Positions 2,124-54,576 are shown, counted from the first letter of the stretch. The stretch: 64,000 nt of DNA from Patescibacteria group bacterium (GCA_034520665.1 JAXHNJ010000002.1:62230-126229), one strand, 5' to 3'. Notes: generated from the letters alone by a model not told the origin. Numbers and translations: made by a program.

Positions 2124-2127
2124 AACA

Positions 2128-2826: not shown

Positions 2827-2861
2827 TTATTTACTATAAATATTTTACTCACTTCCGACAC

Positions 2862-2895
2862 CTTTCAATTATACCACTATACCACCAAAATCAAA
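2862..2895 (-). promoter_or_regulatory. Sigma-70-like promoter for GNAT-A operon (-35 TTGATT, 15-nt spacer, extended -10 TGgTATAAT)
   Basis: Minus-strand sense tttTTGATTttggtggtatagTGgTATAATtgaaagg lies about 40 nt upstream of the GNAT ATG. The TATAAT box is conserved in all three repeat copies. Confidence 0.4.
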
Positions 2896-3100
2896 AAAAC
2901 TCCAATTTCTCTGGAAGCTAAAAAAGCCCTAATCTAAAAGACTAAAGCCGGTTAATTTAAATTAATTCGTGAAAATAAATTAGTGGTAAAGTCCTGCACC
3001 TGCTGGTACAGCCGGGCGTTTTCTAAAGCTACCGCGGCTTGATTAGAAAGTGTAGAAAGTAGCTCAATATCTTCTTTGGTGTAAGCATCTTTAGAAATTT
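2880..3100 (-). repeat. Conserved ~220 bp element, copy A: 3' end of 7TM-GAF gene + terminator + GNAT promoter
   Basis: About 85-90% nucleotide identity to 6720..6945 and 9890..10105, while the flanking coding sequences are only distantly related at protein level. Confidence 0.7.
2893..2918 (-). terminator. Possible intrinsic terminator of the 7TM-GAF gene (imperfect hairpin GCTTCCAG-agaaa-TTGGAG followed by T7)
   Basis: Hairpin plus a 7-T run immediately 3' of the GAF-gene stop. Conserved in the three repeat copies. The stem is imperfect. Confidence 0.3.
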
Positions 3101-4400
3101 TATGACCTAAGATGAAAAGACCGTTGATTTGATCCTTAACCACAAAAGGTAGAACTATGGATACACCCATTTTTTTTAAAACTTGGGCCTGAGCTAAAAG
3201 CTCCTGGTTTTCTTTTTGCTTTGATCTGGATAATATTTCACCAATCACGACCGGTTTTTTAGTTTCCTCTAAATAGCGACAGAAATGCTGATAAGCACAG
3301 ACCTCTTCCAATTTATTCTTATCAAAACCAAGAATTTTATACAAAGAAAAAGGTTTTTGGCTGTTTCGGTTAGCAATGGCTACGGCTAGATTATCTAGGC
3401 GCATGGCATTTTGAATGGTTTTAATCACAACCTTAACCACCTCATCCAAATTAATAGTTTTAGAAATATTTTTTCCAAATTTTTCTAGAACTTCTTGATA
3501 ATCATAAAGACCAGAAAAGAAGTATTTATTGGCAAATCTTTTTAAAAATTTACTTAAATAATTAAAGCTTAGGAGAAATAAGGGAACAATAATAAGAGCC
3601 GAGAGATAAGAGCCTAAGGCAAAAGGACTTTTGAAGAAAAAATTATCAAACCAAAGAACAAAATAATAAGCGGAAAAAATAAAAAGAGCTAGTCCGACAT
3701 AAATAAATGATTTACGGAGAACAAAGCGGATGTCCATAAGACGGTGCTTAATAATGGAGTATGAAGTAACCCCAATAAAAATTAACATAAATAATGGCGC
3801 ATAAACACTAAAATTAATAATTCCAAACAAAGGTAATATCGCATTAGTTATAATACTAAGAAATGCCGAAATTGATATTCCCCAAAATAAATATTTTATT
3901 TGTTCCCTGAATATACCGCTACTGTTTCTAAACTTTATTAATAGATTTTTAAGAGACAGTCCTACATATATTAAAAAATACGCAATAAAAAAATAATACA
4001 TCACGCCTGGAATAGTTTCAGCACCCCAATCATGAATAATGGTTTCTTTAATATTTAATCTTGTCGGAGTTAATATTATAAAAATAAAAACTGGAATTGC
4101 TAAAATAATAAAATCTTTTTTTGTATATTTTCTTGTTAAATATGGAAAATAATTAGTAAATATCAATAGCAGATAAACTATAAAAATTGGACCAATAATG
4201 GTTAATTTTCCAAAAAATGTTGCAATATCAATATTTTTCGTAGTATCAGCAATAAGCAAAGTAGCTATCCATAAAGAAAGACTAAAAACTAATAATGAGA
4301 ATAATACATTAATAGGATTATTAGATTTTTTCTTATAAATAATAAAACCCAATATAATTGAAATTATTAAACTCGGTAGATATGTAATATATTTTATCAT
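2952..4400 (-). CDS. Polytopic membrane sensor: N-terminal multi-TM (histidine-kinase-type 7TM-like) domain + C-terminal GAF domain, no kinase/output domain
   Basis: 482 aa. About 8 hydrophobic helices in the first 300 aa. C-terminal GAF-like block (LAVAIANRN...LPFVVKDQINGLFILGHK...LSNQAAVALENARLYQQ). Ends without a HisKA/HATPase domain. Confidence 0.5.
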   Translation of the reverse strand: MIKYITYLPSLIISIILGFIIYKKKSNNPINVLFSLLVFSLSLWIATLLIADTTKNIDIATFFGKLTIIGPIFIVYLLLIFTNYFPYLTRKYTKKDFIILAIPVFIFIILTPTRLNIKETIIHDWGAETIPGVMYYFFIAYFLIYVGLSLKNLLIKFRNSSGIFREQIKYLFWGISISAFLSIITNAILPLFGIINFSVYAPLFMLIFIGVTSYSIIKHRLMDIRFVLRKSFIYVGLALFIFSAYYFVLWFDNFFFKSPFALGSYLSALIIVPLFLLSFNYLSKFLKRFANKYFFSGLYDYQEVLEKFGKNISKTINLDEVVKVVIKTIQNAMRLDNLAVAIANRNSQKPFSLYKILGFDKNKLEEVCAYQHFCRYLEETKKPVVIGEILSRSKQKENQELLAQAQVLKKMGVSIVLPFVVKDQINGLFILGHKISKDAYTKEDIELLSTLSNQAAVALENARLYQQVQDFTTNLFSRINLN

Positions 4401-4404
4401 TAGT

Positions 4405-5103
4405 TTAATCCTTTATAGCTATTAACATAATATTTTGACCCGCATAAACAATCTGACTATTAATTACCCTAAAATTATTTTTACTAAATAAACTTATATA
4501 ATCTTTAACGGAAAAAAAATTATAAAATCCCCCTTTTGCTTTTCTATCTATAATTTTATTAAAATACAGCAATATAATATATATTTTTATATTTTTTATA
4601 ATAAAGAATAACCCCCGAAAAAAACCATAATTTTTAAAAAATAACCGACAATCATTCTTAAATATTTTAATATTTTTGAATGATTTAAGTGGATCAGTCA
4701 CCACGATAATACCTCCTTTTTTAATTATTCTATAAAATTCTTTTACAATTAAATGTAAATGCTTTTTTTTAAAAACATACAATGTATTTATGCAGATAAT
4801 TCTATCAAATAAATTATTAGGAAAAAGTAATTTATTGCCTAGGTCTGCATGATATAATTTTGCATTTTTATGTTTTTCATTCAATAACTTCAGGGCTTTT
4901 TTTGAATTATCAATACTATGTACTTCATGGCCCATATCAAGAAGTTTTTTTGAGATTTGACCAGGTCCACATCCAGCATCAAGTATTATGTCTGAATTTC
5001 TGAGTTTTAAATTTTTAACTACTAAATTTAATAATTCATTATACGAGGGAGATAATTCCACAAACTTATTGTATGCCTTGTGATATTTATTCCAGAATTT
5101 CAT
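4405..5103 (-). CDS. Class I SAM-dependent methyltransferase
   Basis: 232 aa. Motif I ILDAGCGPGQ, acidic motif II SIDNS, motif post-I. A 4-nt gap to the downstream 7TM-GAF gene. Confidence 0.6.
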   Translation of the reverse strand: MKFWNKYHKAYNKFVELSPSYNELLNLVVKNLKLRNSDIILDAGCGPGQISKKLLDMGHEVHSIDNSKKALKLLNEKHKNAKLYHADLGNKLLFPNNLFDRIICINTLYVFKKKHLHLIVKEFYRIIKKGGIIVVTDPLKSFKNIKIFKNDCRLFFKNYGFFRGLFFIIKNIKIYIILLYFNKIIDRKAKGGFYNFFSVKDYISLFSKNNFRVINSQIVYAGQNIMLIAIKD

Positions 5104-5177
5104 TATTTTAAAAAATTAAAACTCAAAATTATTAGATTAAGAAGAACGGCGATTATTTGAAAAATTAAATGGCTCAT
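5103..5177 (-). CDS. Candidate 24-aa hydrophobic small ORF (MSHLIFQIIAVLLNLIILSFNFLK), translationally coupled
   Basis: ATG lies 8 nt after the ThiF-A stop. Its TAA overlaps the methyltransferase ATG as TAATG. It is below the ORF-track size cutoff and I found it by manual translation. Confidence 0.25.
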   Translation of the reverse strand: MSHLIFQIIAVLLNLIILSFNFLK

Positions 5178-5184
5178 TTCTTTA

Positions 5185-5952
5185 TTATTTAATAAATTCA
5201 GTTAAATCAATATGATTATATTTAGGGGGAATGTAATTTCTATCGCTAATTATTTTTATAATATTCGTAACTATAAGAGATGAGGTTAAATTTGAAGCAA
5301 CCGCAAGTTGAGGATTAAATTTATTTATCTTTTTAATTAGCTCACTACTTTTATTAATAATATATTCTGGCATTTTTATCATTCCATTTTTATATAAACT
5401 AACAATAAAATCTAATTCACTTTTGGGTTTATTATTTTTTAAAAAATCATCTAAAGGGCCTGTTTTTTTATTAATAGTAATGAGCAAGGCTCCAAATCCT
5501 AAATTCATAGGTATAAAAACAGTTTTATCTTCATCTATAGTTTTATCTATTAATTTATAAAAAATATCATTAAGGTCTAAAGTATTTATAATAAAATCAT
5601 AATTTTTTACTAAGCGTAAGTGATTTGCTTTAAATTCTTTTGAATATGCAGTTATATCAGACGAAGGATTTATTAATTTTATAATACATTCCAAGGATTT
5701 AGCTTTGTTTTTACTTAAAAAATCCAAATTAAATACTTGCCTGTTTAAATTTGAAATTGTAACATTGTCAAAATCAAACAAAGTAAATCTTGCAAATCCC
5801 GTCCTTGTTGCTAATAAGGCAATGTTTCCGCCAAGCCCACAACCAGCAAACATTAAACTTATACTTTTTATCTTTTCTTGCATATCAGAATCAATAAACA
5901 AACAATTTCTGCTAATCATTTCGTTGTAATTGTATTGATATTTGTTTAACAT
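5185..5952 (-). CDS. ThiF/MoeB/HesA-family E1-like adenylyltransferase (paralog A)
   Basis: 255 aa. Rossmann nucleotide motif FAGCGLGGN and the E1 signature ISNLNRQ. Only the adenylation domain is present (no rhodanese domain, no CxxC pairs). Its size resembles TcdA/MccB-core-like enzymes. Confidence 0.6.
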   Translation of the reverse strand: MLNKYQYNYNEMISRNCLFIDSDMQEKIKSISLMFAGCGLGGNIALLATRTGFARFTLFDFDNVTISNLNRQVFNLDFLSKNKAKSLECIIKLINPSSDITAYSKEFKANHLRLVKNYDFIINTLDLNDIFYKLIDKTIDEDKTVFIPMNLGFGALLITINKKTGPLDDFLKNNKPKSELDFIVSLYKNGMIKMPEYIINKSSELIKKINKFNPQLAVASNLTSSLIVTNIIKIISDRNYIPPKYNHIDLTEFIK

Positions 5953-5963
5953 CTTATATTTTT

Positions 5964-6671
5964 TTAAAACTCAAAATTATTTGATTTATAATTATAAAAA
6001 TAGAATAATAATCTATCTTTTTCTTTAACTTCGTCCGCTTTTTTTTTAATGTCAATAAAAAAGGGATAGTTGATGGCATTGAAGCAAAATTTGGGCTCAC
6101 CAATTAATTCAACTTCACCAACATAGTTATCAAGAGTTTTTAGAAACCATTTTTCCGCACAACCGAACCAGAATAAATAATCATTTTGCCTAGAAAAAAG
6201 ATAAATCGCTTTAAACATATCTAGCAAAAGCATTGTCTTCCTATAATCGGGGTGTATCATGAATCTTGATAATTCGGTTATTTTTTCTCGGGGAACATTT
6301 TTTAATCTTTTTACTAAATCAAATTCTTTTTCTGTGGGAAACCCAAGTGGCGAGTTCTTTATTATTCTTGAGGTACCAACAATGTTATTATAACGATCGA
6401 ACGCAATAATATGATCGGCGTATTTATCATATAAATCAGTTTCCTTTTTGTCGGGATACTCTTCTTTATTTAATAAGCCATCAACATTGCAATAAATATT
6501 ATATCTAAATTTATACACGCGCTCCATTAGTTCCTTGTTCTCTTCATCTCTAACAAAAATCAATTTGTATTGTTTATAAGGCCGCCTTAAATGAAACAAT
6601 AAATAAGCGCGCAGTAAAAATATTACTATGGGATTTTTGCTATTTTTTATTTTCTTTGCTGAAAAATTCAT
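5964..6671 (-). CDS. GNAT-fold N-acyltransferase, N-acyl amino acid synthase/LuxI-like (paralog B)
   Basis: 235 aa. Motif YKFRYNIYCNVDGLL and ELSRF. Distant paralog of 2128..2826 and 9157..9849. Confidence 0.5.
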   Translation of the reverse strand: MNFSAKKIKNSKNPIVIFLLRAYLLFHLRRPYKQYKLIFVRDEENKELMERVYKFRYNIYCNVDGLLNKEEYPDKKETDLYDKYADHIIAFDRYNNIVGTSRIIKNSPLGFPTEKEFDLVKRLKNVPREKITELSRFMIHPDYRKTMLLLDMFKAIYLFSRQNDYLFWFGCAEKWFLKTLDNYVGEVELIGEPKFCFNAINYPFFIDIKKKADEVKEKDRLLFYFYNYKSNNFEF

Positions 6672-6719
6672 TATATTACCCTTTGTTCAAATTCTTCTTT
6701 CTTTACCCTGCTTTAATTA

Positions 6720-6945
6720 TACCTAAAAAATTAAAAAAGCTCCAATTTCCCTGGAAGCCAAAAAAGCCCTAATCTAAAAGGTTAAAGCCGGTTGATTTAA
6801 ATTAATTCGTGAAAATAAATTAGTGGTAAAGTCCTGCACTTGCTGGTACAGCCGGGCGTTTTCTAAAGCAATAGAGGCTTGGTTGGTCAGAGAATTAAGA
6901 AGCTGTAGATCTTCTTTAGTTTAGGCATCTTTGGAAATCTTTTCA
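6720..6945 (-). repeat. Conserved ~220 bp element, copy B (GAF 3' end + terminator + promoter)
   Basis: Near-identical to 2880..3100. In this copy the GAF stop TAA is mutated to CAA and an upstream in-frame TAA is present. Confidence 0.7.
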
Positions 6946-8254
6946 CCTAAGACAATAATGCCGATCAATTTATTTTTAATAATCAAAGGCAGACACAAGG
7001 CCGCTTCAATTCTTTTCATATTAGCCTTTAATTTACCGATTTCCGACTTTTCACCCTGCCCATTACTTTTTAAAGACTCCAGTTTTTTGGTAAATAACTG
7101 GTTTTCTTTTTTCTAAAAGATAATTGGTGAGGAAATTATTTCTGACTAGAGAAATGCCGTTAGCTACGGAAAAGCCAATATTGCTCTTAACCTGGTAATT
7201 ATGGGTTTCTTGGTCAAATAATAAAACACCGGTTCGGTCCAGTTTCATGGTGTCTCTAATAGTTTTGACAATGGAAGTCAATGATTTGATCTAAATCAAT
7301 AGAATGAGTCAGTTTCTGGGCCAGTTTTTCCAGAGTAGCCTGGTAGTTGTAAATACTGGCAAAGAAGTATTTGTTGGCAATTCTTTCTAGGTAATTCTTT
7401 AAGGACTCAAAGAGGATTAAGCCGAGCAAAAGGACAATTGGGCCCCAAACACCCGGAGGAATGATTTCCTTGAAATAAGTCATTTCCAGCCAGTAAAGGC
7501 CGAGGGCGAGAAGGATAATTATAATAATGGTGGAAGCATAGATGGCAGTTCTTTTCACGACCAGGCGGATGTCCATGAGGCGGTGGCGGACGATGGCGTA
7601 GGAGGTGAAAACCACGAAAAAAATTATTGACTGAATACCTATATAACTAAATTCTTGAATATTAAATATAGGCAAAATAATGTTAGTTAAAATTGCAATA
7701 ACAGCAGAAATTAATATACCCAAGAAAACATATTTCATTTGCATTCTATGCAACCCTGAACTATTTTTATATTTTATTATTGCTTCGATAAAAGCATAAA
7801 TTATAAATAGAAGGAAATATATAATAAAAAATAAATAAAATGAACCGTAGATAAAATTTGTTCCCCATTCTTGAATATCTACATCTTTTACAATCAAGTT
7901 GGTGTACAGTAAAACTAATAATAATAATGGTACTATATAAATAAATAGTAACTTTTTTTTGGTAATTTCATTTTTATAAAAGGGGAATACGAGACTGAAA
8001 TGGAGTAATATTGCTGGTATTATTATTGGTCCTATAAAAACAATTTTACTTAAACTTAAAGCAATATTCTCATTTATTGCTCTATCTACTAAATAAGTGG
8101 AGAATATCCAAAATCCAATTACAAAAACTAAAAAACCAAAAATAATACTTTCTTTTTTGCCTTTAGATTCATAAAAAACATAAAAACAAAGCAAAAAATT
8201 GAGTAGTAAGATTATCAATGTAATTATTGAAGTAATATCAAATGAAAAATCCAT
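6790..8254 (-). pseudogene. Disrupted paralog of the 7TM-GAF sensor (fragmented into at least three frames)
   Basis: ORF 7256..8254 encodes the intact multi-TM N-terminal region and aligns with 2952..4400 (shared ...HRLMDIR...KYFF...Y.YQ motifs). GAF fragments appear in a different frame (7063..7281). The C-terminal ~50 codons are in a further frame with an internal TAA. Confidence 0.5.
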
Positions 8255-8262
8255 AATTAGTT

Positions 8263-9033
8263 TTATTTATTCGTATAAGCATCAAAAAATATTGGCACTG
8301 GCGCAAAATTAATTTTTACACCTTGAATAAGCTTAATTATTGCTGTTAAAGTAATCGAAGCCACAATATATGATCCAATACAAATTTGCGGATAATACCC
8401 TCTTTTTTTAATTTCTTGAAAAATACTATTAATATTTTTATTTTTTAAAAACGGAAGAGAATACTCTTCTAACGATTTAAATAATTTAATATAAAATTCA
8501 TGATCATTTTTAGGTATGTGATTGCCCCAAATTGATTCAGGCGATGCAGAATGTTTATTAAAAAGCAATAATAATCCTCGAAAACCCAAATTAAAGGGAC
8601 ATAATACAGTTTTATCATTTTTAATAAAATTCGAGATTACTGAAAAATAAATTTTATTAAGATCAACCGTGTTAACTACAAAATCATGTTTTTTTATTAA
8701 ACTTTTCAAAATTTTCTCATTAATATATTTATTTATTACCCTGATATTCGCATTAGAATTAATGTTTATTAAACGTTTTTTTAATCGCTTCGCTTTATTA
8801 TAATTTAAATCATCTAGAATATATGATTGTCTATTTAGATTTGAGATGTTAACTTCATCTCCGTCAGCAATTGTAATATTAGTGAATCCCATTCGAACCG
8901 CCACCTCTGAAATCACACTACCCAAACCACATCCAGCAAAAAGAATGCTAGTTTTTTTTATTTTTTTTTGTAAATTAGAGTCTATATAAATCCAATTTCT
9001 ACTTATAAACGTGTTATAATCAAAATTTTTCAT
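8263..9033 (-). CDS. ThiF/MoeB/HesA-family E1-like adenylyltransferase (paralog B)
   Basis: 256 aa. FAGCGLGS and VNISNLNRQ. About 30-35% identity by eye to 5185..5952. Confidence 0.6.
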   Translation of the reverse strand: MKNFDYNTFISRNWIYIDSNLQKKIKKTSILFAGCGLGSVISEVAVRMGFTNITIADGDEVNISNLNRQSYILDDLNYNKAKRLKKRLININSNANIRVINKYINEKILKSLIKKHDFVVNTVDLNKIYFSVISNFIKNDKTVLCPFNLGFRGLLLLFNKHSASPESIWGNHIPKNDHEFYIKLFKSLEEYSLPFLKNKNINSIFQEIKKRGYYPQICIGSYIVASITLTAIIKLIQGVKINFAPVPIFFDAYTNK

Positions 9034-9156
9034 TTTTTATATTATTGTTGGTTAATTCTTGTTTATCTATTGCATATACTACTCTAAATCCTTGATAAAA
9101 GAAAATGTAAACCTTCATGAATACAAAATATATTTATTCAAAAAAATTATTTATAA

Positions 9157-9849
9157 CTAGTGTATACTATAACTATTCCCTTCACCATTATACTTAATTA
9201 GCCCTTTTTTTAAGTACTTCCATAAGTTTATATTTTCATTTTTAAGGTTTTCTTCCATTTCTGAAATATCTAAAATAAAAGGCGTGGTAATCCCCTGATA
9301 TAATGTCGGCGGACCAATTTTTTTAAAAGGAAAACCAAGTTTAATTAATATGGGGTATAAATTATCATCCATAACGGCAAAAACGTGAGTAATATTCTTT
9401 TCTTTCACAAAAGTGTACATGCCTTTAATCAGGGCGAGAAGGAGAAAATGCTTCCGGTATTTTTTAGCGACAATCAGACGGGATATTTCAGCCAATTTGC
9501 TTCTGTTCTTTTGAAGGATATCAACTTCAATTTTCATGTTTTTCTCTATCGGAAATCCCATTTCTGAGTTTAAAATTAATCTGACCGTGGCGGCTAAATT
9601 TCTAGTTTGTTTTTCTCTTAGTATAAAATGAACTGATTTATCATCATAATTGTCTTTTTCTTTTTTCCCCGGATGTTTATCCTTGTCAATATAACTAAAT
9701 TCCTCGCAAAATACTTCGTAGCGAAGCTTAAAAATTTTTTCTAGTTCAGATTTAGAGTCAGTAGTGTAAAAAATAAACTTATCAGAAAAGCTTCTTTGGA
9801 ACTGCCAAAATTCATAAAATCTTCTTAACTTTTTTATTATTTTTATCAT
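9157..9849 (-). CDS. GNAT-fold N-acyltransferase, N-acyl amino acid synthase/LuxI-like (paralog C)
   Basis: 230 aa. Motif FKLRYEVFCEEFSY and EISRL. Confidence 0.5.
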   Translation of the reverse strand: MIKIIKKLRRFYEFWQFQRSFSDKFIFYTTDSKSELEKIFKLRYEVFCEEFSYIDKDKHPGKKEKDNYDDKSVHFILREKQTRNLAATVRLILNSEMGFPIEKNMKIEVDILQKNRSKLAEISRLIVAKKYRKHFLLLALIKGMYTFVKEKNITHVFAVMDDNLYPILIKLGFPFKKIGPPTLYQGITTPFILDISEMEENLKNENINLWKYLKKGLIKYNGEGNSYSIH

Positions 9850-9889
9850 TTTCTATAACTAGTGCTCACTTCCCTTCTTGTTTTCATTA

Positions 9890-10105
9890 TACCTAAAAAA
9901 TCAAAAAAGCTCTAATTTCTCTGGAAGCCAAAAAAGCCCTAATCTAAAAGGCTAAAGCCGGTTGATTTAAATTAATTCGTGAAAATAAATTAGTAGAAAA
10001 GTCCGGCACCTGCTGGTACAATCGGGTGTTTTCTAAAGCTACCGCCGCTTGATTAGAAAGTGTAGAAAGTAGCTCAATATCTTCTTTGGTGTAGGCGTCT
10101 TTTTT
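9890..10105 (-). repeat. Conserved ~220 bp element, copy C, including a ~135 bp remnant of a 7TM-GAF gene 3' end with no gene body
   Basis: Near-identical to 2880..3100 (closer to copy A than to copy B). Homology stops abruptly at about 10104, some 70 nt before the tRNA-Trp 3' end. Confidence 0.65.
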
Positions 10106-10177
10106 AAGGTTTTGGACCTCTCTTTACGTGAAAGGAGGGGTGGAGACCTACCCCTAATACTAAATATACAGGATTTT

Positions 10178-10252
10178 TGGCAGGGGCACTAGGATTCGAA
10201 CCTAGAATAAGGGTTTTGGAGACCCTTGTGATAGCCATTTCACTATGCCCCC
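10178..10252 (-). tRNA. tRNA-Trp (anticodon CCA)
   Basis: Hand-folded. Acceptor GGGGGCA/TGCCCCT (one G-U). D-arm GTGA-AATGGCTA-TCAC. Anticodon stem AGGGT/ACCCT with loop CTCCAAA. T-arm CTAGG-TTCGAAT-CCTAG. Encoded CCA. 75 nt. Confidence 0.8.
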
Positions 10253-10523
10253 AATAAAAATCCCGCTTATTGTTTTTATAAACCTATTCTTTTTATTAAA
10301 CCTTGATATGAAGAAACTAAATCTCTTTAACTTTTTTTTCCTCTCTTTAGATGCTTCTCTATTATCATAGGCTTCGTAATACTTAAGCTCCAATGGTCGT
10401 CTGTTTTTTGTTGAATACACATCTCCTCTGTAGTAGTCCATCAATCTATTTTTTAAATTTTCAGTTCTGCCAATATATAATCGTTCATCTTTTTTTGCTT
10501 CTTAAAAAATACACATAATACAT
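10202..10523 (-). pseudogene. GIY-YIG nuclease (YhbQ-like) with a -1/+1 frameshift in an A7 run; 3' end overlaps tRNA-Trp
   Basis: N-terminal MYYVYFLRSKK in one frame (ATG 10523..10521). The rest, DERLYIGRTENLKNRLMDYYRGDVYSTKNRRPLELKYYEAYDNREASKERKKKLK, is in the adjacent frame. The shift sits at the homopolymer 10489..10495. No stop occurs before the ORF runs into the tRNA. Confidence 0.5.
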
Positions 10524-10566
10524 AATATTTCTTTCGCACCATCAAAATCTGTCGTTTATATTTAAA

Positions 10567-10722
10567 CTACTTCACTTCCTTATGTAAAGTATGTTTACGG
10601 CACTTTTTACAATGCTTTTTAATGTTGAGCTTCTCTTTTATTTTCTTTTTATTCTTTTTTGAGTAGTAATTTATATTATTACACTCAGTGCATTTAAGTT
10701 TAATCAGATTGTCTTGGGACAT
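10567..10722 (-). CDS. rpmG: 50S ribosomal protein L33
   Basis: 51 aa (below the ORF-track cutoff). [51 protein letters not shown] has the L33 CxxC...Y.T.KN...CxxC..HT pattern. Confidence 0.7.
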
Positions 10723-10759
10723 AATTTTAAGTTAATTTAAGTTAGTTAGTTTAATTAAG

Positions 10760-11131
10760 TTAATTAAGGTTGTTCTGGCTTGATAAATAGTTAATATATT
10801 TATTCAATCCAATCAATAATCCTTCATAATCCTGATCAACTCTTGTAAATTTCTCTAAGTTCAAATATTTCAAGCCTTTAGCTACTCTTAAATGACTCCT
10901 TATTTCAAAAATTTCTCCTCTTGCTTGGTATAAAATTCTAATCTTATCCTTATAAAAATAACGTCCTTGACTTTCAGCAATATTAGCAATAACAGAATTA
11001 GAAGCTCTTTTCAATTGATTAATGAGGGCATATTTTTCAGTATCAGGAAAATTATTTGTTATTTGATAAATACAAAGAACTAATTTATATCCTTTCTGCC
11101 AAATATTTAATTTAAAGAACGCTTTTACCAT
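10760..11131 (-). CDS. Four-helix-bundle protein (23S rRNA intervening-sequence protein / Avd-like family)
   Basis: 123 aa. FKLNIWQKGYKLVLCIYQIT..FPDTEKYALINQLKRASNSVIANIAES.GRYFYKDKIRILYQARGEIFEI matches the conserved IVS-protein pattern (L.VWQKA..L...IY.....FP..E...L..Q..RAA.S...NIAEG..R....D). Confidence 0.6.
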   Translation of the reverse strand: MVKAFFKLNIWQKGYKLVLCIYQITNNFPDTEKYALINQLKRASNSVIANIAESQGRYFYKDKIRILYQARGEIFEIRSHLRVAKGLKYLNLEKFTRVDQDYEGLLIGLNKYINYLSSQNNLN

Positions 11132-11221
11132 AATTCATTTCTTTTCACGCCACCAAAATGTCTTTATTAATATATCGAAATTAACTAAATCAACTTAAGA
11201 AACCTTAACTAACTTAACTTA

Positions 11222-11347
11222 TGGAGCCGAGGAGAGGAATTGAACCCCCAACCTACTGTTTATCCCGAAGTTCTCGAAATTTTGCCATGGAGCCAGCGCC
11301 TCGGGCCCAGAACCGACGACCTACGGTTTACCCGCCTGCCGAACGCC
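11222..11347 (-). other. Two tandem tRNA 3'-end-like fragments (T-arm-like + acceptor 3' strand + TCCA), not foldable as complete tRNAs
   Basis: Each unit (66 and 60 nt) ends ...GGCTCCA like the neighbouring tRNA-Thr genes and contains a GGTTC-type T-loop-like segment. I could not find a matching 5' acceptor strand. Confidence 0.3.
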
Positions 11348-11423
11348 TGGAGCCGGAGGTGGGAGTCGAACCCACGACTTGCTGTTTACAAAACAGCTAC
11401 TCTGACCACTGAGTTACTCCGGC
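11348..11423 (-). tRNA. tRNA-Thr (anticodon TGT)
   Basis: Hand-folded. GCCGGAG/CTCCGGC acceptor. ACTC-AGTGGTCA-GAGT D-arm. GCTGT-TTTGTAA-ACAGC anticodon arm. GTGGG-TTCGACT-CCCAC T-arm. Encoded CCA. 76 nt. Confidence 0.8.
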
Positions 11424-11560
11424 GCCCGGCGACTGGCGGGCAGACAAAACAGTTGTGCCGATAGCCAGAGGCTATCGAACCTTCTCGATTCGCCAAGCGA
11501 ATCGGGACTCTAGCCAACTGAGCTACGCCGGCAAAAGACAGACTGTTTATCAGCTCAAAG
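11424..11560 (-). other. tRNA-like element with canonical 5' start (GCCGGCGTAGCTCAGTTGGCTAGAGT) but two inserted perfect 7-bp hairpins; no canonical cloverleaf
   Basis: It starts like an Ile/Ala-type tRNA. It is then followed by GATTCGC-ttg-GCGAATC and GATAGCC-tctg-GCTATC hairpins and no matching acceptor 3' strand. Confidence 0.3.
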
Positions 11561-11646
11561 TGGTGGGCCGAGTAGGATTCGAACCTACGAAGCCCGAAGG
11601 CGCCAGATTTACAGTCTGGTGCATTTGACCACTCTGCCACCGACCC
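11561..11646 (-). tRNA. tRNA-Tyr (anticodon GTA), type II with long variable arm
   Basis: Hand-folded. GGGTCGG/TCGGCCC acceptor (two G-U). CCAGA-CTGTAAA-TCTGG anticodon arm. Variable hairpin GCC-ttcg-GGC. GTAGG-TTCGAAT-CCTAC T-arm. ACCA end. 86 nt. Confidence 0.8.
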
Positions 11647-11663
11647 ATTACTTTGAGCTGATT

Positions 11664-11915
11664 TTATTTTAAGATACTATTTAGATATTTTCGGCCTTGG
11701 CCAGATTTTAAAAACTTTTCTCTCTTCATTGCCTCTGACCTAGTTTTAAAAATTTCATGATATATTAATTTCCAAGGTTTTCTTCCTTTAGTATACGGGC
11801 ATTTTCCTTGATTATGTTTTTTAATTCTATTATTCAAATTTACAGTTTGACCCGTTTGACCACTTCGGTATCCACCCACTATTGCTTGCCATCTTTTATT
11901 TTTTTTATAATGCAT
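11664..11915 (-). CDS. GIY-YIG nuclease (YhbQ-like)
   Basis: ORF 11664..11969; the likely start is the internal Met (MHYKKNKRWQAIVGGY...). GQTVNLNNRIKKHNQGKCPYTKGRKPWKLIYHEIFKTRSEAMKREKFLK is the conserved GIY-YIG C-terminal pattern. The extreme N-terminal 18 codons of the track ORF read through a duplicated tRNA-Tyr fragment. Confidence 0.55.
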   Translation of the reverse strand: MHYKKNKRWQAIVGGYRSGQTGQTVNLNNRIKKHNQGKCPYTKGRKPWKLIYHEIFKTRSEAMKREKFLKSGQGRKYLNSILK

Positions 11916-11947
11916 TTGCCTGCCCGCCAAAACGGAAGTGAAGGCGG

Positions 11948-11995
11948 GACCACTCTGCCACCGACCCATTACTTTGAGCCGATTTTATTTAAGTG
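11948..11995 (-). repeat. Duplicate of the tRNA-Tyr 5' end plus ~25 nt of its upstream flank
   Basis: ggaccactctgccaccgacccattactttgagc(c/t)gattttatttaag also occurs at 11620..11668. Together the two copies bracket the GIY-YIG gene. Confidence 0.7.
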
Positions 11996-12140
11996 CTAGC
12001 CCACGCGCAGACTTGTCACCCTACGGGTGATCCTCCAAAGGAGGAAACCGCTAATTCTTTGAAAAAGACACAAAATAAGTTCTACTCCTTACCCCCGACA
12101 TTCGTCGGGGCAAGCATGAAGTTGCTCTACCCGCTACCTC
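11990..12140 (-). pseudogene. Degenerate tRNA-Thr(GGT)-like copy with a 22-nt insertion in the anticodon loop, truncated D-arm and no T-arm
   Basis: GGGTAGAGCAACTTCATG[CTTGCCCCGACGAATGTCGGGG]GTAAGGAGTAG equals the intact neighbour (...GGTAGAGCAACTCCATGGTAAGGAGTAG) once the bracketed 22 nt are removed. The downstream sequence forms unrelated hairpins. Confidence 0.35.
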
Positions 12141-12216
12141 TGGAGCCCACCGTCGGATTTGAACCGACGACCTACTCCTTACCATGGAGTTGCTCTACCA
12201 ACTGAGCTAGGTGGGC
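12141..12216 (-). tRNA. tRNA-Thr (anticodon GGT)
   Basis: Hand-folded. GCCCACC/GGTGGGC acceptor. GCTC-AGTTGGTA-GAGC D-arm. ACTCC-ATGGTAA-GGAGT anticodon arm. GTCGG-TTCAAAT-CCGAC T-arm. Encoded CCA. 76 nt. Confidence 0.8.
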
Positions 12217-12480
12217 AAAAGAGGTAGTGGGGCCAACTGCTCGCCCCGAGCATTGACGAGGGGAGCTACGTGGGCCTAAGCTGAGGTTTAGGTGGGTCTA
12301 CCAACTGCCCGCTCGTCATAATTTGCGCTCAAGCGCTAGCGAACGAGAGTTACGTGGGCCTAGCCAAACAGCTGAGGGTTTACTGGATTTTTAATTACAG
12401 TTGCGATATTTATCCTCCGAATCCTGAAGGGCCAAGGAGGACCAACTGAGCTAAGACTGCTCGGGCGATGGCAGGCAAGA
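12217..12480 (-). other. Three further tRNA 5'-fragment-like units (GGCCCACGTAGCTC...AGTTGG / TAGCTCAGTTGG...) with stem-loop insertions in the D-loop; GC-rich
   Basis: Units at about 12217..12276, 12277..12360 and 12361..12480 begin like tRNA-Thr/Ile but carry inserted hairpins and lack anticodon and T arms. I found no RNase P (P4) or tmRNA signatures. Confidence 0.3.
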
Positions 12481-12507
12481 ACTACCTAGAATTATTTTTT
12501 TAAATAA

Positions 12508-13401
12508 CTACATATTATTAACTTCTTTTTCTAATTCGTCAAGTTTTTCATTTTCCGGATTAACCTGTTTTAATTTATCAAAAGTACGTACGGCCAAACT
12601 TTTATTCCTTGCTTCAATACTTAATTCCAATAAAGCACTGACATATTTAGGATTATTTGGTTCTAAGTTCAAAGCATCCTGATAAGATTTTATAGCTTTT
12701 TGTATATCATCACAGGCTGTATAAATTTTAGCTAGATTAGCGTGATAAGTAGCAATTTTACTGTTAATATTTATTGATTTAATAAGATCCTGTTTTGCTT
12801 CATCTAAATTACCCAATGAACTGGCAATAACCCCTAAATTTTCATAAGCCTTGTCATCCTGAGCATTAAGTTTAATCAAAAAGGAAAATATTTCCCTAGC
12901 GTGTTCATAATCTTTTTTAGCTAGATAAACTTCTCCTAATAAATGATAAGCGGAAATATTCTTTTGGTCAAGACTAATTATATTTATACAAATCTCTTCA
13001 GCTTCATTTAAATCTCCGGATTTTTTAAGCTCTTCGGCCGTTCTTAACTTATCTTCCATTTCTTTATTTATCTTTTTCTTTGCTTCAATAGTCTTTGGTT
13101 TTATTTTTTTCTTTTCCCGATATTTTTTTTCAAGCTCCAATAATTGGTAATACCATTTTTTTATTTTATTTTTAACTTCATCATAATAAGGATAAGTTTT
13201 TTGCTTAAATATAAACGCCATATTTACAATTTTTCTTTTTAAACGGCCTTCCAATATTTCTTTTTTAACCTGAGCTTCTTTTTCTTCCGGTATTTTTTTA
13301 GTATCAATCATGCTCAAAACCTGAATTTTTTTCAGAACTAAAAGTATTATCAGGACTAAAGAAAGAATGGCTATGATTAAGGCAATTATATTAAAAATCA
13401 T
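12508..13401 (-). CDS. Membrane-anchored tetratricopeptide-repeat (TPR) protein
   Basis: 297 aa. N-terminal TM helix, a charged coiled-coil segment, then TPR-like repeats (AY..LG..Y...DY..A...F, A..NLG......GN.DEA). Confidence 0.5.
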   Translation of the reverse strand: MIFNIIALIIAILSLVLIILLVLKKIQVLSMIDTKKIPEEKEAQVKKEILEGRLKRKIVNMAFIFKQKTYPYYDEVKNKIKKWYYQLLELEKKYREKKKIKPKTIEAKKKINKEMEDKLRTAEELKKSGDLNEAEEICINIISLDQKNISAYHLLGEVYLAKKDYEHAREIFSFLIKLNAQDDKAYENLGVIASSLGNLDEAKQDLIKSININSKIATYHANLAKIYTACDDIQKAIKSYQDALNLEPNNPKYVSALLELSIEARNKSLAVRTFDKLKQVNPENEKLDELEKEVNNM

Positions 13402-16137: not shown

Positions 16138-17184
16138 ATGGATAAACTAAAAAAATTACAAAAAAAACACCAGGACCTGGAAAAAAAACTGCAAAAAAAA
16201 GAGATAATCAATAACCCAACCAAGCTCAAAAAAATATCAAAAGAATATGATGAGTCTGGGCATTTGTTAGAATTATATAATAAATTAGAAGAAGTTAAGC
16301 AAGGTTTAAAGGAAACCGAAAAAATCATCAGTGAAACTTCTGAATCAGAATTAAAGAAAATGGCAGAGAAAGAAGAAAAAAATATTAAACAAAAAAAACA
16401 AGAATTAAAAAAAGAAATTAAAGAAATTGAAAATCCTAAAAATCTTCTAGATAAAAAAGATATTATTGTAGAAATTAGAGCCGGTACTGGCGGTGATGAA
16501 GCCGCTCTCTTTGCCTCTGATCTTTTTCGTATGTATTCGCGCTTTGCTGAAAATAAGAGCTGGCAAACAAATTTAATTTCTTCAAACAAAACCGGCATTG
16601 GCGGATTTAAAGAAGTTATTTTTGAAATAAAAGGCACTAATGTTTACTCCAATCTAAAATATGAGTCGGGCGTTCATCGGGTACAAAGAGTACCCGAAAC
16701 TGAAAAACAGGGTCGAATTCACACTTCAGCCGCCACGGTGGCTGTTATGCCCGAGGCAGAGGAAATAGATATTAAAATTAATCCCAAAGATATAAGAGTT
16801 GATACTTTTTGTGCTTCTGGTCATGGCGGTCAATCAGTTAATACTACTTATTCAGCTGTCAGGATAACTCATCTACCCACTGATCTGGTCGTATCCTGCC
16901 AGGATGAAAAATCCCAGACCCAAAATAAAATAAAAGCGATGCAAGTTTTGCGTTCCCGTCTTTTGGCCTTAGAAGAAGAAAAAAGACAAAAAGAAGAATC
17001 AGCTAAAAGAAAGTCTCAAATTGGCTCCGGCGACCGCTCGGAAAAAATTAGAACTTATAATTTTCCCCAGGACCGAATAACTGATCACCGGATTAAAAAA
17101 AGCTGGCATAATCTAATCGAAATACTGGATGGTAATTTGGATAAAATTATTAAAGAATTAAAAGTCATTGATGAGAGTAAATAA
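16138..17184 (+). CDS. prfA: Peptide chain release factor 1
   Basis: 348 aa. GGQ motif (GGQSVN) and PxT-type tripeptide (RVQRVPETE) characteristic of RF1. Confidence 0.85.
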
Positions 17185-18001
17185 AATACTTGAAAATTCT
17201 TATAAAAAACTAAGGGATAGAAAAATAAAGTCTGCTTCTCTAGACACAGAAGTCCTTCTTTCTTATGTTTTGAAAAAAACCCGTTCTTATCTTTATATTT
17301 GGCCAGATAAAAAAATAACCAAAAACCAAGCGACAAGATACAAACGATTAATTAAAAAAAGATGTGACCATGAACCAGTAGCTTACTTAATCCACCATAA
17401 AGAATTTTTTGGTCTTGATTTTTACATTAACAAAAATGTGCTTATCCCCCGCCCAGCCACCGAAACTTTGGTAGATATAATTATAAAGCTCGTAGATGCG
17501 GGTCGCGACCCGCATCTACGTATTCTGGATGTAGGCACTGGCTCGGGTTGTATGGCTGTCACTTTAAAAAAATATTTACCAAAGACCAGAATACTAGCCT
17601 CTGACCTTTCGGAAAAAATACTTAAAATAGCCAAAAAAAATGCCAAAAAAAATAAAGTCAAAATAAATTTTAGAAAAGGCAATCTTCTAGAACCCTGGAA
17701 AAACTTTAAACTGGATATCATAGTAGCTAACTTGCCCTATTTAACCCCTCAGCAAATGAAAGCCAAATCCATTCAAGCCGAACCCCAAAAAGCCCTTTAT
17801 GGCGGTAAAAAGGGTTTAGAAATTTATGAAGAATTATTTCGGCAAATAAAAGACTTTAAAATAAAAGCAAAAGTATTTATAGAAATTGACCCCCGGCAAA
17901 TAAAAAATATTACTAAATTAATTAAAGAATATTTCCCCAAAAGAAAAATAGCGGTTATTCAGGATTTATCCGGACAGGACCGGGTGGTAGTGATCAAATA
18001 A
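17168..18001 (+). CDS. prmC: Release-factor glutamine N5-methyltransferase PrmC/HemK
   Basis: 277 aa. SAM motif [11 protein letters not shown] and the N/DPPY-type motif NLPY. Overlaps prfA by 17 nt (classical pairing). Confidence 0.8.
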
Positions 18002-43901: not shown

Positions 43902-44034
43902 TTTTCCTCCTAATTTTATTTTAAATGAGCAATTTAAATTATTTTACAAAAATAAGCGAAATTGTCAAGGACTTTAAAAAAATAAGTAGCTCTACTTAAT
44001 TAGTAGAACTACTTCTTGATAATTTTATAAAATA

Positions 44035-44916: not shown

Positions 44917-45012
44917 GATATAAGGAACTTAACAGTATAAACTTACATTATAACAAAAATATGTCAAGTCTTATAAAAAACCCCCGTTTTTAATAAACAG
45001 GGGCTATAAATA

Positions 45013-49925: not shown

Positions 49926-49934
49926 AAATTTTTT

Positions 49935-50916: not shown

Positions 50917-51339
50917 CTAATTGATTTTAATACCCATATTACGAGCCGTACCCTTGATAATCTTCTTAGCTCCCTCCAAATCTTTGGCGTTTAAATCAGG
51001 CATTTTTATTTTAGCAATTTCTTCAATATCCTTTTCAGAAACTTTTCCGGCTTTTTCTTTTAACTGATCCCCTGAGCCTTTGTCCACTCCGGCTGCTTTT
51101 TTTAAGAGAGCGGCCGCTGGTGGGGTTTTTAAAATAAAATCAAAACTCCTGTCTTCATAAACAGTCAGTTCCACCGGAATAATATCACCGGCTTTATCTT
51201 TGGTTTTATTGTTAAACTGGGTGCAAAATTCTTGAATATTTACTCCGTGCTGTCCCAAGGCCGGACCGATAGGAGGGGCCGGATTAGCCTTACCAGCTGG
51301 TATTTGTAGTTTAATTATTGTTTTAATTTTCTTAGCCAT
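50917..51339 (-). CDS. rplK: 50S ribosomal protein L11
   Basis: 140 aa. [22 protein letters not shown] signature. Confidence 0.9.
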
Positions 51340-51665
51340 TTTATTAGTTATATAGTAAGTTAGTTGATTAGTGACTTAGTTTTTGTTTATTTCTTAAATA
51401 TCTTATATATCCGTTAATACCTTTTATTAATTCTGTATATTTATTAATAAATTTTTCTCCAATTTCTTGTGTTATATATTTATTTTCTATAAAACCTTTA
51501 AATTGACTTTTTACCTCTTCCGCTTCCCCTCTTGAAATATATAAAGAATAAATTTTGTTTCCATAATTATATTTTCTATACTGGTAGTATTAAGAATATT
51601 CCTTTCTCAAGCCACCAAATATTATATTTACAATTAACTAATTGACTATCTAACTAATTAACTAA

Positions 51666-52211
51666 CTAAATTTTTTTAACTTGTAAAAAGTCTAGCTCTA
51701 CCGGCGTTTCCCGGCCAAACATAGAAACTAAAACTTTAATTTTACCTCGTGCTTCATCAATTTCGGAAACCTTGCCTTCAAATTCCTTAAAGGGGCCGTC
51801 AATAATTTTAACCGGCGTACCGACACTGACGTCAATTTTATATTTAGGTTCTTCCACACCCATGCGTTTCTGTAAGTTTTTAACTTCTTTTTCAGAAATA
51901 GGGGTCGGCGTGGTACCCGAACCAACAAAACCGGTAACATTAGGAGTATTTCGGACCACATACCAGGAATCATCCGTGACAATCATTTCTACTAAAACAT
52001 AACCGGGAAATATTTTTTCGGTTACAGTTTTTCTTTTACCGTTTTTTATTTTAATCTTTTTTTCTGTTGGTATGAGAACATTAAAAATTTTATCCTCCAT
52101 ATCCATAGACTCAATTCTTTGTTTAAGATTTCGAGATACATTTTCTTCATAGCCAGAATAAGTATGTAAAACATACCATCTTCTTCCCTGTTGTAGTGTT
52201 TGTTTAGGCAT
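51666..52211 (-). CDS. nusG: Transcription termination/antitermination factor NusG
   Basis: 181 aa. NGN domain (WYVLHTYSGYE...FPGYVLVEM) and C-terminal KOW (GTPVKIIDGPFKEFEGKV). Confidence 0.85.
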   Translation of the reverse strand: MPKQTLQQGRRWYVLHTYSGYEENVSRNLKQRIESMDMEDKIFNVLIPTEKKIKIKNGKRKTVTEKIFPGYVLVEMIVTDDSWYVVRNTPNVTGFVGSGTTPTPISEKEVKNLQKRMGVEEPKYKIDVSVGTPVKIIDGPFKEFEGKVSEIDEARGKIKVLVSMFGRETPVELDFLQVKKI

Positions 52212-52216
52212 AAATT

Positions 52217-52408
52217 TTAAGTAATACTAATAATTTGCTGTACTCCTATATTGAGTAGATAATCAACCAAACCCAAAAAAGCACCCACAACCAAGCAAAC
52301 TCCTAAAACTATCAGAGTTTGGTGAATTGTCTCTTTTCTGGTTGGCCAAGAGACTTTTTTTAGCTCTTCTTTTGCTTCTTTAAAGTAATTTATGAGTTTA
52401 TTAGCCAT
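52217..52408 (-). CDS. secE: Preprotein translocase subunit SecE
   Basis: 63 aa. ELKKVSWPTRKE followed by a single TM helix. Directly upstream of nusG. Confidence 0.8.
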   Translation of the reverse strand: MANKLINYFKEAKEELKKVSWPTRKETIHQTLIVLGVCLVVGAFLGLVDYLLNIGVQQIISIT

Positions 52409-54571: not shown

Positions 54572-54576
54572 TTATT

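Follow-up and report, generated by a model that had tools for sequence, protein, structure and literature searches.

A decayed GIY-YIG gene between rpmG and tRNA-Trp in a Patescibacteria genome looks like a relic of a tRNA-associated selfish cassette

The tRNA/rpmG/tRNA-Trp block and its relics

We analyzed a tRNA-containing locus within a 64-kb stretch of a Patescibacteria genome (hereafter, the window; 33% GC overall). The minus strand carries every feature of the locus discussed here, that is, the tRNA/rpmG/tRNA-Trp block and the edge of the adjoining gene array. Read 5' to 3' on this strand, the block starts with tRNA-Thr(GGU), a GIY-YIG remnant, tRNA-Tyr, and tRNA-Thr(UGU), continues with a 23S-rRNA-IVP/bAvd-like gene, rpmG, a GIY-YIG gene, and tRNA-Trp, and is followed by the array, in which FeeM-like GNAT, ThiF, methyltransferase, and 7TM-GAF sensor genes lie 3' of tRNA-Trp. 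The features of the block and of the sequence immediately behind tRNA-Trp are as follows:

12216-12141, minus strand: tRNA-Thr(GGU)
11948..11990, minus strand: direct repeat comprising the tRNA-Tyr leader and tRNA positions 1-20 (other copy, 11627-11669; repeat family D7)
11664..11855, minus strand: second GIY-YIG remnant, without the N-terminus (PF01541 profile positions 17-74 only)
11561..11646, minus strand: intact tRNA-Tyr (GTA anticodon; ARAGORN and Rfam)
11423-11348, minus strand: tRNA-Thr(UGU)
11131-10760, minus strand: 23S-rRNA-IVP/bAvd-like gene, within the tRNA operon
10567..10722, minus strand: rpmG (ribosomal protein L33), upstream neighbor of the GIY-YIG gene (PF00471, E 3.8e-17)
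10276..10523, minus strand: GIY-YIG (UPF0213/YhbQ-like) pseudogene (PF01541; alignment with 10 homologs; DNA alignment with the related loci L004, L005, and L076)
10523-10521, minus strand: ATG of the GIY-YIG pseudogene
10491..10497, minus strand: frameshift 1, a single surplus A in the A7 run (column gapped in all three relatives; frame translation)
10314..10316, minus strand: frameshift 2, T3 run with one extra T (gap in the same three relatives)
10278-10276, minus strand: ancestral TAA stop of the GIY-YIG pseudogene, 23 nt before tRNA-Trp
10178..10252, minus strand: intact tRNA-Trp (CCA anticodon, CCA encoded; ARAGORN; Rfam RF00005, 64.2 bits)
10108..10148, minus strand: relic of a second tRNA-Trp anticodon arm (the same structure aligned in register in L076, L052, and L005)
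10148-10141, minus strand: left part of the relic, GGTCTCCA
10140-10117, minus strand: insert in the relic, decayed 24-nt palindrome, CCCCTCCTTTCACGTAAAGAGAGG
10116-10108, minus strand: right part of the relic, TCCAAAACC

An earlier note on this DNA had placed tRNA-Trp at 10178..10252, a GIY-YIG gene directly upstream of it, and the edge of a GNAT/ThiF array about 70 nt from its 3' end, and all three placements hold: both ARAGORN and Rfam locate tRNA-Trp there, the GIY-YIG gene (10523-10276) matches PF01541 once its frame is repaired, and the opening repeat of the array, according to an alignment of its three copies, starts at about 10103, 74 nt past the tRNA. The four tRNAs alone reached the threshold when positions 9500-13000 were searched permissively with Rfam. 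A consensus scan placed a promoter-like site for the tRNA/rpmG transcript at 12542-12514. Among 80 related rpmG loci, tRNA-Trp follows rpmG on the same strand in 58 (43 of these loci extend 3 kb or more past the tRNA), and 2-36 nt separate the two genes in 17 of the 58.

For the profile search, the GIY-YIG gene was repaired by joining two frames at the A7 run; the resulting protein matched PF01541 with 41.1 bits (cutoff, 22.6) and could be aligned over its full length with ten homologs. Of the solved structures, those of the UPF0213 proteins 1zg2 (E 2e-11) and 1ywl (E 6e-10), which were matched by the profile of the family, are nearest. The N-terminal frame reads MYYVYFLRSKK(R-stop), ending right behind the A7 run, and the protein continues as AKKDERLYIGRTENLKNRL... 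in another frame. The 1-nt frameshift in the A7 run, reported previously, is corroborated by DNA alignment, in which the window has one base more than each of the three relatives, and the same alignment revealed the second +1 insertion, in the T3 run. Beyond this second frameshift, the other frame reads SSYQGLIKRIGL followed by a stop, matching the C-terminus (SSYYGLIKRLKIK followed by a stop) of the closest homolog, P0003. The gene was also said to have no stop before it reads into the tRNA. The read-through is real, but its cause is different: the ancestral TAA exists and is hidden by the second shift, so that the open reading frame (ORF) runs 51 nt into tRNA-Trp.

Thus, compared with the three relatives, the frame of the window copy is interrupted by two +1 insertions. 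In addition, alignment with the ten homologs showed the substitutions H30Y and E62K at near-invariant positions; of the catalytic set, Tyr, Tyr, and Arg are kept, His is replaced with Tyr, and Glu with Lys. In the closest relative, L004, the GIY-YIG gene contains an in-frame TAA at nearly the same place, suggestive of repeated decay of this ORF. A Logan contig from a separate assembly, possibly of the same reads (L003, run SRR26473340), is 100% identical to the window over 10064-11656, both homopolymer runs and the array junction included, and therefore, the indels are not peculiar to one assembler. The Trp-linked gene is a pseudogene of the UPF0213/YhbQ-like branch. That it still functions, with ribosomal or transcriptional slippage restoring the frame, is hardly credible: poly(A) tracts in AT-rich reduced genomes can support slippage, and the N-terminal frame stops immediately behind the A7 run, but the unrelated second insertion in the T3 run, the loss of the near-invariant His and Glu, and the repeated decay suggested by L004 all argue against programmed rescue.

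The Tyr-linked remnant ends 17 nt before tRNA-Tyr. The direct repeat of the tRNA-Tyr leader and the first tRNA positions spans 43 nt with 98% identity between the copies, and relatives show the same layout. Tyr-linked GIY genes located, as in the window, between tRNA-Thr(GGU) and tRNA-Tyr were identified in 11 related loci. Both GIY-YIG copies in the window are dead.

The 74 nt behind tRNA-Trp are no empty spacer but harbor a conserved pseudo-tRNA relic. The relic is separated from tRNA-Trp by a 29-nt spacer, and its flanks, GGTCTCCA and TCCAAAACC, together rebuild the tRNA-Trp anticodon arm (GGTCTCCAAAACC), with TCCA duplicated. In the window, the palindrome between these flanks has decayed, with 8 of the 12 arm positions still complementary; in three other Patescibacteria loci (L076, L052, and L005), where the relic lies about 15-29 nt after tRNA-Trp and also follows a GIY-YIG/tRNA-Trp pair, the 24-nt insert is perfectly or almost perfectly palindromic (for instance, CCCCGTCGTTCGCGAACGACGGGG). 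The relics of L076 and L052 run on into a T-arm and ...CCCTGCCA. The same GGTCTCCA-palindrome-TCCAAAACC structure was found in 10 further loci. Viral contigs scanned for a palindrome-split anticodon arm yielded no match, and no ribozyme core was recognized in the 24-nt insert by the permissive Rfam search of 9500-13000.

Two other origins for the insert were considered and rejected. An archaeal-type bulge-helix-bulge intron does not fit, given that the palindrome flanks lack the two 3-nt bulges around a 4-bp helix and that most palindrome-split copies are further damaged. De novo formation of the palindrome by fold-back repair does not fit either, given that the arms do not come from the flanking tRNA sequence and are similar between genomes.

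GIY-YIG ORFs next to tRNA genes in related genomes

At least seven other loci, among them L004, L005, L020/L021, L052, L065, and L076, have a GIY-YIG gene of the same type between rpmG and tRNA-Trp. Its distribution is patchy, with 5 of the 58 rpmG/tRNA-Trp loci carrying it. From a pool that consisted of the 80 rpmG loci and 80 metagenome loci fetched with the GIY profile, we compiled 103 distinct GIY ORFs. The encoded proteins are 74-94 aa long, and the nuclease domain fills the whole protein. For 46 of the 103 ORFs, a tRNA gene on the same strand starts between -14 and +147 nt from the stop codon, and for 41, this distance is within -14 to +32 nt. The linked tRNAs are mostly tRNA-Trp (23 cases) and tRNA-Tyr (11 cases), but those for Thr, Cys, Pro, Val, Ala, Ile, Asp, and Arg are represented as well. 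In at least six cases, the stop codon of the ORF is the tRNA's own TAG at positions 8-10. The Trp- and Tyr-linked ORFs form separate clusters, with the best hit belonging to the same tRNA type for 19 of 23 and 10 of 10 ORFs, respectively.

More than half of the tRNA-linked ORFs (26 of 46) are preceded, within about 130 nt, by a stretch that repeats the 5' part of the respective tRNA at 97-100% identity. These duplicated parts span 11-36 nt and start at tRNA position 1-3; the longest reach the anticodon. The well-preserved cassettes (L104, L130, L091, L100, and L112) consist of tRNA positions 1-36, a palindrome, 3' tRNA pieces, the GIY ORF, and the intact tRNA, and in some of these, extra palindrome-marked 3' pieces follow the intact tRNA in tandem. 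Neither the window nor L004 has a recognizable duplicate of the tRNA-Trp 5' part upstream of the ORF. Copy number varies at one locus, with two tandem copies in L124 and L128 and one in L126. No pair of closely related alleles, one filled and one empty, was found for a tRNA-linked copy.

Exact GC-rich inverted repeats of 10-21 nt bracket 30 of the 47 examined ORFs that have no tRNA next to them; the stop codon lies inside the 3' arm. Several of these bracketed ORFs lie at a tRNA 3' end, where the terminal tRNA bases are duplicated, and one copy resides inside a 16S rRNA gene (L156). The arms of the ORF-less palindromes resemble the ORF-bracketing inverted repeats (CCCGCCCTTC...), suggesting that the palindromes are miniature derivatives of these elements. 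In the window (10760-11131) and in L009, L024, L027, L048, and L074, a comparable slot is taken by a 23S_rRNA_IVP gene.

The recurrent unit, a UPF0213-like GIY-YIG ORF of about 80 aa immediately 5' of a same-strand tRNA gene, commonly with a duplicate of the tRNA 5' part upstream and with pseudo-tRNA pieces split by short GC-rich palindromes, resembles a tRNA-targeting selfish cassette, and the local feature looks like a decayed member of this family. [quoted passage not shown]

A possible mechanism and comparison with known systems

Taken as a whole, the interval is probably best explained as the downstream end of a conserved tRNA/rpmG/tRNA-Trp block that contains the wreck of a small selfish cassette. 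With a similar degree of confidence, we favor an account in which the cassettes are selfish elements aimed at stable-RNA genes, with mobility that would be driven by the nuclease. The nuclease would act on tRNA genes in the manner of a free-standing homing endonuclease or a related structure-specific nuclease, and repair would copy the ORF into the tRNA locus. At a single-copy tRNA gene, only those repair products in which an intact tRNA is rebuilt would be viable, and survival of such products alone would leave behind duplicated tRNA 5' parts and stranded pseudo-tRNA pieces. Once fixed, the ORF would decay, as it did twice in the window and, judging by the in-frame TAA, in L004.

The placement of the ORFs is what would be expected of homing endonucleases: 41 of them lie within -14 to +32 nt of a tRNA, and 5 of 58 loci are occupied in a patchy manner. 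The proteins themselves consist of the catalytic domain only and contain no DNA-binding domain of the I-TevI/Seg type; hence, it is not obvious how they could home to specific sites. The duplicated tRNA 5' parts and the copy-number polymorphism are only indirect signs of the putative cleavage and transfer.

The persistence of the GIY-tRNA pair across distant genomes may also mean that a useful gene is inherited vertically and does not move. The pairing would then be a stable arrangement that benefits the host, for example, through co-expression for repair or RNA processing, and the pseudo-tRNA pieces would be unrelated debris. In favor of this possibility, the pairing is widespread in distant Patescibacteria, the coherent Trp- and Tyr-linked clusters are what vertical descent would also give, and UPF0213 proteins are ordinary chromosomal genes in many bacteria; nevertheless, we regard it as unlikely. 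A beneficial arrangement would not be expected to occur in as few as 5 of 58 rpmG/tRNA-Trp loci, to decay repeatedly (twice in the window and in L004), or to vary in tandem copy number; the copies bracketed by inverted repeats, including the one inside the 16S rRNA gene of L156, and the exact duplications of tRNA 5' parts that flank the ORF also speak against it.

Among known proteins, those of the UPF0213/YhbQ family (1zg2, BH0048; 1ywl, EF2693) share with the cassette ORFs the fold family, as detected by profile search, and the size, but linkage to tRNA genes is not a known property of this family within the literature searched. We know of no established function for UPF0213 proteins. The closest characterized analogue is SegB of phage T4, a free-standing GIY-YIG homing endonuclease encoded inside the phage tRNA gene cluster, which promotes its own inheritance and that of the neighboring tRNA genes by cleaving the tRNA region in SegB-less genomes (PMC2330249). 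In both cases, a GIY-YIG nuclease gene is embedded among tRNA genes. However, SegB is a phage protein with a DNA-binding part, whereas the ORFs described here encode chromosomal putative nucleases of about 80 aa and lie directly against the 5' end of one particular tRNA, accompanied by palindromes and duplicated tRNA 5' parts.

The closest described relatives within the same phylum are the non-intron insertions in CPR rRNA genes, which carry GIY-YIG or 23S_rRNA_IVP ORFs, in a report that does not mention tRNA (PMC11270868). The two ORF types are the same as those found here, the insertions are neither group I nor group II introns, and the copy in L156 lies in a 16S rRNA gene; the copies in the window, in contrast, are located in a tRNA/rpmG operon rather than an rRNA gene. 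Patescibacteria tRNAs also harbor group I introns in the anticodon loop (PMC13011429). Although the phylum and the insertion into the anticodon loop of tRNA genes are shared, the insert described here is a 24-nt palindrome accompanied by a duplicated TCCA, without a ribozyme or an Rfam match, and typically resides in further-damaged copies beside an intact gene.

A broader and more tentative proposal, to which we give clearly less credence than to the selfish-cassette account, is that Patescibacteria host previously undescribed miniature GIY-YIG elements that target stable-RNA genes, the palindromes being their ORF-less derivatives. In this scheme, the ORF would land directly 5' of a tRNA gene, and the duplicated tRNA 5' part would rebuild an intact tRNA; old copies would be marked by 24-nt TCGCGA-centered palindromes that the TCCA duplication flanks in the anticodon loop; and elsewhere, the ORF would sit between two palindrome arms. 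In a bolder form of the same proposal, L084-like genomes would carry the palindrome in their only tRNA-Trp gene and remove it at the RNA level.

The combination of an ORF abutting a tRNA, a duplicated tRNA 5' part, and palindrome-split pseudo-tRNAs could serve as a sequence signature of selfish cassettes reshaping the tRNA loci of very small genomes. The same pattern would explain the tRNA fragments that litter the tRNA regions of these genomes and confuse annotation. The small GIY-YIG proteins and their target, if it is specific, are directly testable.

The array edge and the synteny of the locus

Upstream of the tRNA cluster, the window (12.5-24.6 kb) shares synteny with seven relatives. Downstream of tRNA-Trp, nothing is shared with the relatives, nor among most of the relatives themselves. 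The ORFs located downstream of tRNA-Trp in the seven syntenic relatives have no homologs anywhere in the window, and consequently, the ancestral downstream neighbor of tRNA-Trp is untraceable. According to the earlier note, the junction behind tRNA-Trp breaks an ancestral link to secE-nusG-rplK-rplA, which was placed at 50917..52408. The genes were mapped as follows:

52217-52408: secE
52408-50917: secE, nusG, and rplK
48847-49581: rplA, separated from rplK by two unknown ORFs

Thus, the interval given for the cluster is correct for secE, nusG, and rplK but not for rplA. The proposed break did not survive comparison with relatives: a tblastn search (E 1e-4) of the fetched flanks of the 80 related rpmG loci detected no secE or nusG, either directly after tRNA-Trp or elsewhere, and the same search picked up rplK and rplA at 50-61% identity in L082. 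Given that none of the 80 rpmG loci has secE or nusG nearby, the separation of rpmG/tRNA-Trp from secE-nusG is not due to this junction and, as far as the sampled sequences indicate, is an old property of the clade.

On the array side, the following features were identified:

10104..10107, minus strand: junction between the pseudo-tRNA relic and the sensor-gene fragment (relatives go on to the T-arm and CCCTGCCA, the window to sensor sequence)
9944..10103, minus strand: 3' end of a truncated 7TM-GAF sensor gene (residues 437-482 in the intact paralog)
9888..10103, minus strand: repeat copy 3, comprising the sensor 3' end and the intergenic region (family D1; other copies, 2878-3093 and 6718-6933)
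9935..9953, minus strand: terminator-like hairpin followed by a T-run, inside the repeat (consensus scan only)
9157..9849, minus strand: first FeeM-like GNAT gene of the array (PF13444 and PF21926)

At the junction, the relic is cut off after TCCAAAACCTTA and fused to the last 46 codons of a sensor gene, starting at residue 437; behind these codons come the terminator-like hairpin of the sensor gene and the upstream region of the first FeeM-like GNAT gene. The 216-nt repeat that includes this fragment is 92% identical at the DNA level to the copy at the 3' end of an intact 482-aa sensor gene (2952-4400). The junction is probably an illegitimate join, that is, a deletion or another non-homologous event, that truncated two unrelated features; this architecture points to such a join rather than to a site-specific recombinase acting at the tRNA 3' end. 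The array boundary is the product of an event separate from, and later than, the cassette.

The region 600-9849 encodes FeeM-like GNATs, ThiF, a methyltransferase, 7TM-GAF sensors, and one unknown protein, and the array runs on to the left of the window (L166). Among the GNAT paralogs, protein identity reaches only about 27%, and the ThiF pair shares 39%, which is indicative of an old paralog cluster rather than a freshly delivered one; recent tandem amplification as the origin of the array was rejected on the same grounds. The GC content of the array is 27.6%, compared with 33.5% for the rest of the window. Relatives that share the GNAT array at this position, which together with an intact GIY-YIG gene and no target-site duplication would, according to the earlier note, have indicated an ancient stable arrangement, were not found: no homologs of array genes were detected at the 80 related rpmG loci, including the 43 with at least 3 kb beyond tRNA-Trp.

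The view of the array as an accessory island beside tRNA-Trp stands insofar as the array is lineage specific, compositionally deviant, and absent from all 80 loci compared, and falls where insertion of the integrase type is concerned. Integrase-borne islands at tRNA 3' ends likewise present a variable, compositionally distinct block that starts beside a tRNA gene, and synteny here indeed ends at tRNA-Trp; with the array continuing beyond the window, its distal end lies outside the sequence, and the att site and an integrase could be located to the left. Nonetheless, we consider insertion of the GNAT/ThiF/sensor array into the 3' end of tRNA-Trp by an integrase to be quite unlikely. The junction is not within the 3' part of the tRNA but 74 nt past it, inside a relic that array-less relatives also carry, and it truncates a sensor gene at residue 437. 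There is no integrase or recombinase among the gene calls in the 10 kb of the array within the window, and no second tRNA-Trp 3' end, with up to three mismatches allowed, in the 64-kb window, the distal array boundary lying to its left. The low identity of the GNAT paralogs, too, implies an old cluster rather than a recent insert. Neither is the GIY-YIG gene a passenger of the array, as had been suggested, given that it lies on the 5' side of the tRNA and that the same type of gene occupies the same place elsewhere.

Hence, the notion of an island is partly supported: a variable region does start at the array edge, but not by the proposed route, and the arguments from the GIY-YIG gene and from secE have no bearing on it. 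For the window itself, the outcome consists mainly of corrections: the nuclease gene is a dead remnant and not a mark of island delivery, tRNA-Trp is not demonstrably an integration site, and its separation from secE-nusG is old.

An assembly artifact, that is, a chimeric join via the 216-nt repeat that is present three times in the array, is very improbable as the source of the junction. The repeat copies are 85-92% identical, and Logan contigs are interrupted at them, with the end of L003 at 10064 and the start of L167 at 9197. No second contig covers 9197-10064, and the path from 10064 into the GNAT3 gene crosses the repeat. However, L003 spans the junction itself at 100% identity, running from the tRNA and the relic into 40 nt of sensor sequence that differ at two positions from the other copy. 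Because L003 crosses the junction, the sensor 3' fragment does follow the relic, and only the identity of the next GNAT gene could be wrong. Exact-protein look-ups of L33, the 507-aa ORF, and GNAT3 returned no record.

The three copies of the 216-nt repeat show pairwise identities of 92%, 85%, and 86%, although the genes behind them have diverged strongly. For this conservation, we can offer no explanation beyond gene conversion or a common regulatory function. The predicted terminator-like hairpin in the sensor fragment, detected by the consensus scan, could now end the tRNA/rpmG transcript.

GIY-YIG and intervening-sequence-protein genes next to tRNAs

The ~80-aa UPF0213/YhbQ-like GIY-YIG ORFs, read here as selfish cassettes, are intact and overlap the downstream tRNA by 10-14 nt in six of the loci fetched for comparison (L091, L092, L095, L096, L101, and L157), as well as in L127 and L164. 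Where the overlap is 10 nt, the stop codon of the GIY-YIG ORF is the conserved T8-A9-G10 of the tRNA, so that 5' processing of the tRNA would strip the stop codon from the mRNA. In L156 (3001-3420), a GIY-YIG ORF lies within a 16S rRNA gene, just 5' of GTGCCAGCAGC, and is flanked by the inverted repeat CCCCACACCTTTTATGC / GCATAAAAGGTGTGGGG.

In the minus-strand tRNA cluster of the window, the GIY-YIG remnant located 5' of tRNA-Tyr (within 11664-11990) has lost its first ~16 codons. On its 5' side are a 43-nt exact-type repeat, comprising the tRNA-Tyr leader and tRNA positions 1-20, and a hairpin, CCCGCC...GGCGGG. The 5' half of tRNA-Tyr also occurs in a more diverged copy (11881-11835), which continues into the ORF, perhaps via a deletion at the common GGTCAAAC.

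The tRNA/rpmG operon contains another gene of this kind of location:

10760-11131, 23S-rRNA-intervening-sequence protein gene (four-helix bundle, bAvd-like)

In the relatives L009, L024, L027, L048, and L074, genes for this protein are found between tRNAs or directly 5' of tRNA-Trp, which is the same niche as that of the GIY-YIG ORFs.

tRNA fragments and TCGCGA-centred palindromes

Many tRNA fragments are scattered through the cluster between 11222 and 12470. None of these was called by ARAGORN or Rfam, the only calls being the four intact tRNA genes. The fragments and associated hairpins include:

12466-12442 (approximate), further 5' tRNA fragment
12140-12080, Thr(GGU)-like tRNA fragment interrupted by the hairpin CCCCGACGAATGTCGGGG
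11538-11514, Thr(UGU)-like 5' tRNA piece, followed by the next two features
11504-11486, GC-rich hairpin
11477-11459, GC-rich hairpin
11347-11222, two 3'-half tRNA remnants with the 3' end GGCTCCA

Palindromes are also present outside this cluster, including one within a protein-coding gene:

17491-17520, perfect 30-nt palindrome CGTAGATGCGGGTCGCGACCCGCATCTACG within 17168-18001 (plus strand), a gene for a prmC/hemK-like methyltransferase

This palindrome is centred on TCGCGA, like the tRNA-associated ones, and is in frame, encoding 10 residues in a variable loop of the methyltransferase. In L084 (353-600), the palindrome TCCAGCCCTTCGCGAAGGGCTGGA occupies the anticodon loop of an otherwise complete tRNA-Trp, which is followed by a ~120-nt insert, beyond which the 3' end and trailer of the tRNA are repeated; no intact tRNA-Trp was detected in this 15-kb locus. 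In L104 (3330-3520), at least three tandem ~64-nt units, each consisting of GTCTCCAA, a palindrome, the 3' acceptor strand of the tRNA, and the tRNA trailer, lie 3' of an intact tRNA-Trp.

Sensor-GNAT array and other genes of the window

Beyond tRNA-Trp, the array contains three copies, 85-92% identical, of a 216-nt segment that comprises the 3' end of the sensor gene, a terminator-like hairpin, and the region upstream of a GNAT gene:

2878-3093, first copy
6718-6933, second copy
9888-10103, third copy

In contrast to the copies themselves, the GNAT genes that follow them share only ~27% protein identity. The middle 7TM-GAF sensor paralog (6780-8254) is a pseudogene, with at least two frame changes and an in-frame stop at KISKDA*TKEDL.

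Elsewhere in the window, rplK and rplA are not adjacent, as they normally would be, but separated by two ORFs of 323 and 102 aa (49617-50906), for which no match was found in Pfam or NCBIfam. The 54017-55023 region encodes a CarS-like homolog of CDP-archaeol synthase (E 6e-33, under the model cutoff) and an adjoining CDP-alcohol phosphatidyltransferase with archaetidylinositol phosphate synthase as its best match; both genes, from a bacterial genome, match archaeal-type lipid genes. The regions 43062-45885 and 45997-47373, taken together, include a tandem trio of sigma-70 family genes (Pfam labels taken from L001) and a ThyX of 458 aa, about twice the usual length, two stretches of which match the model.
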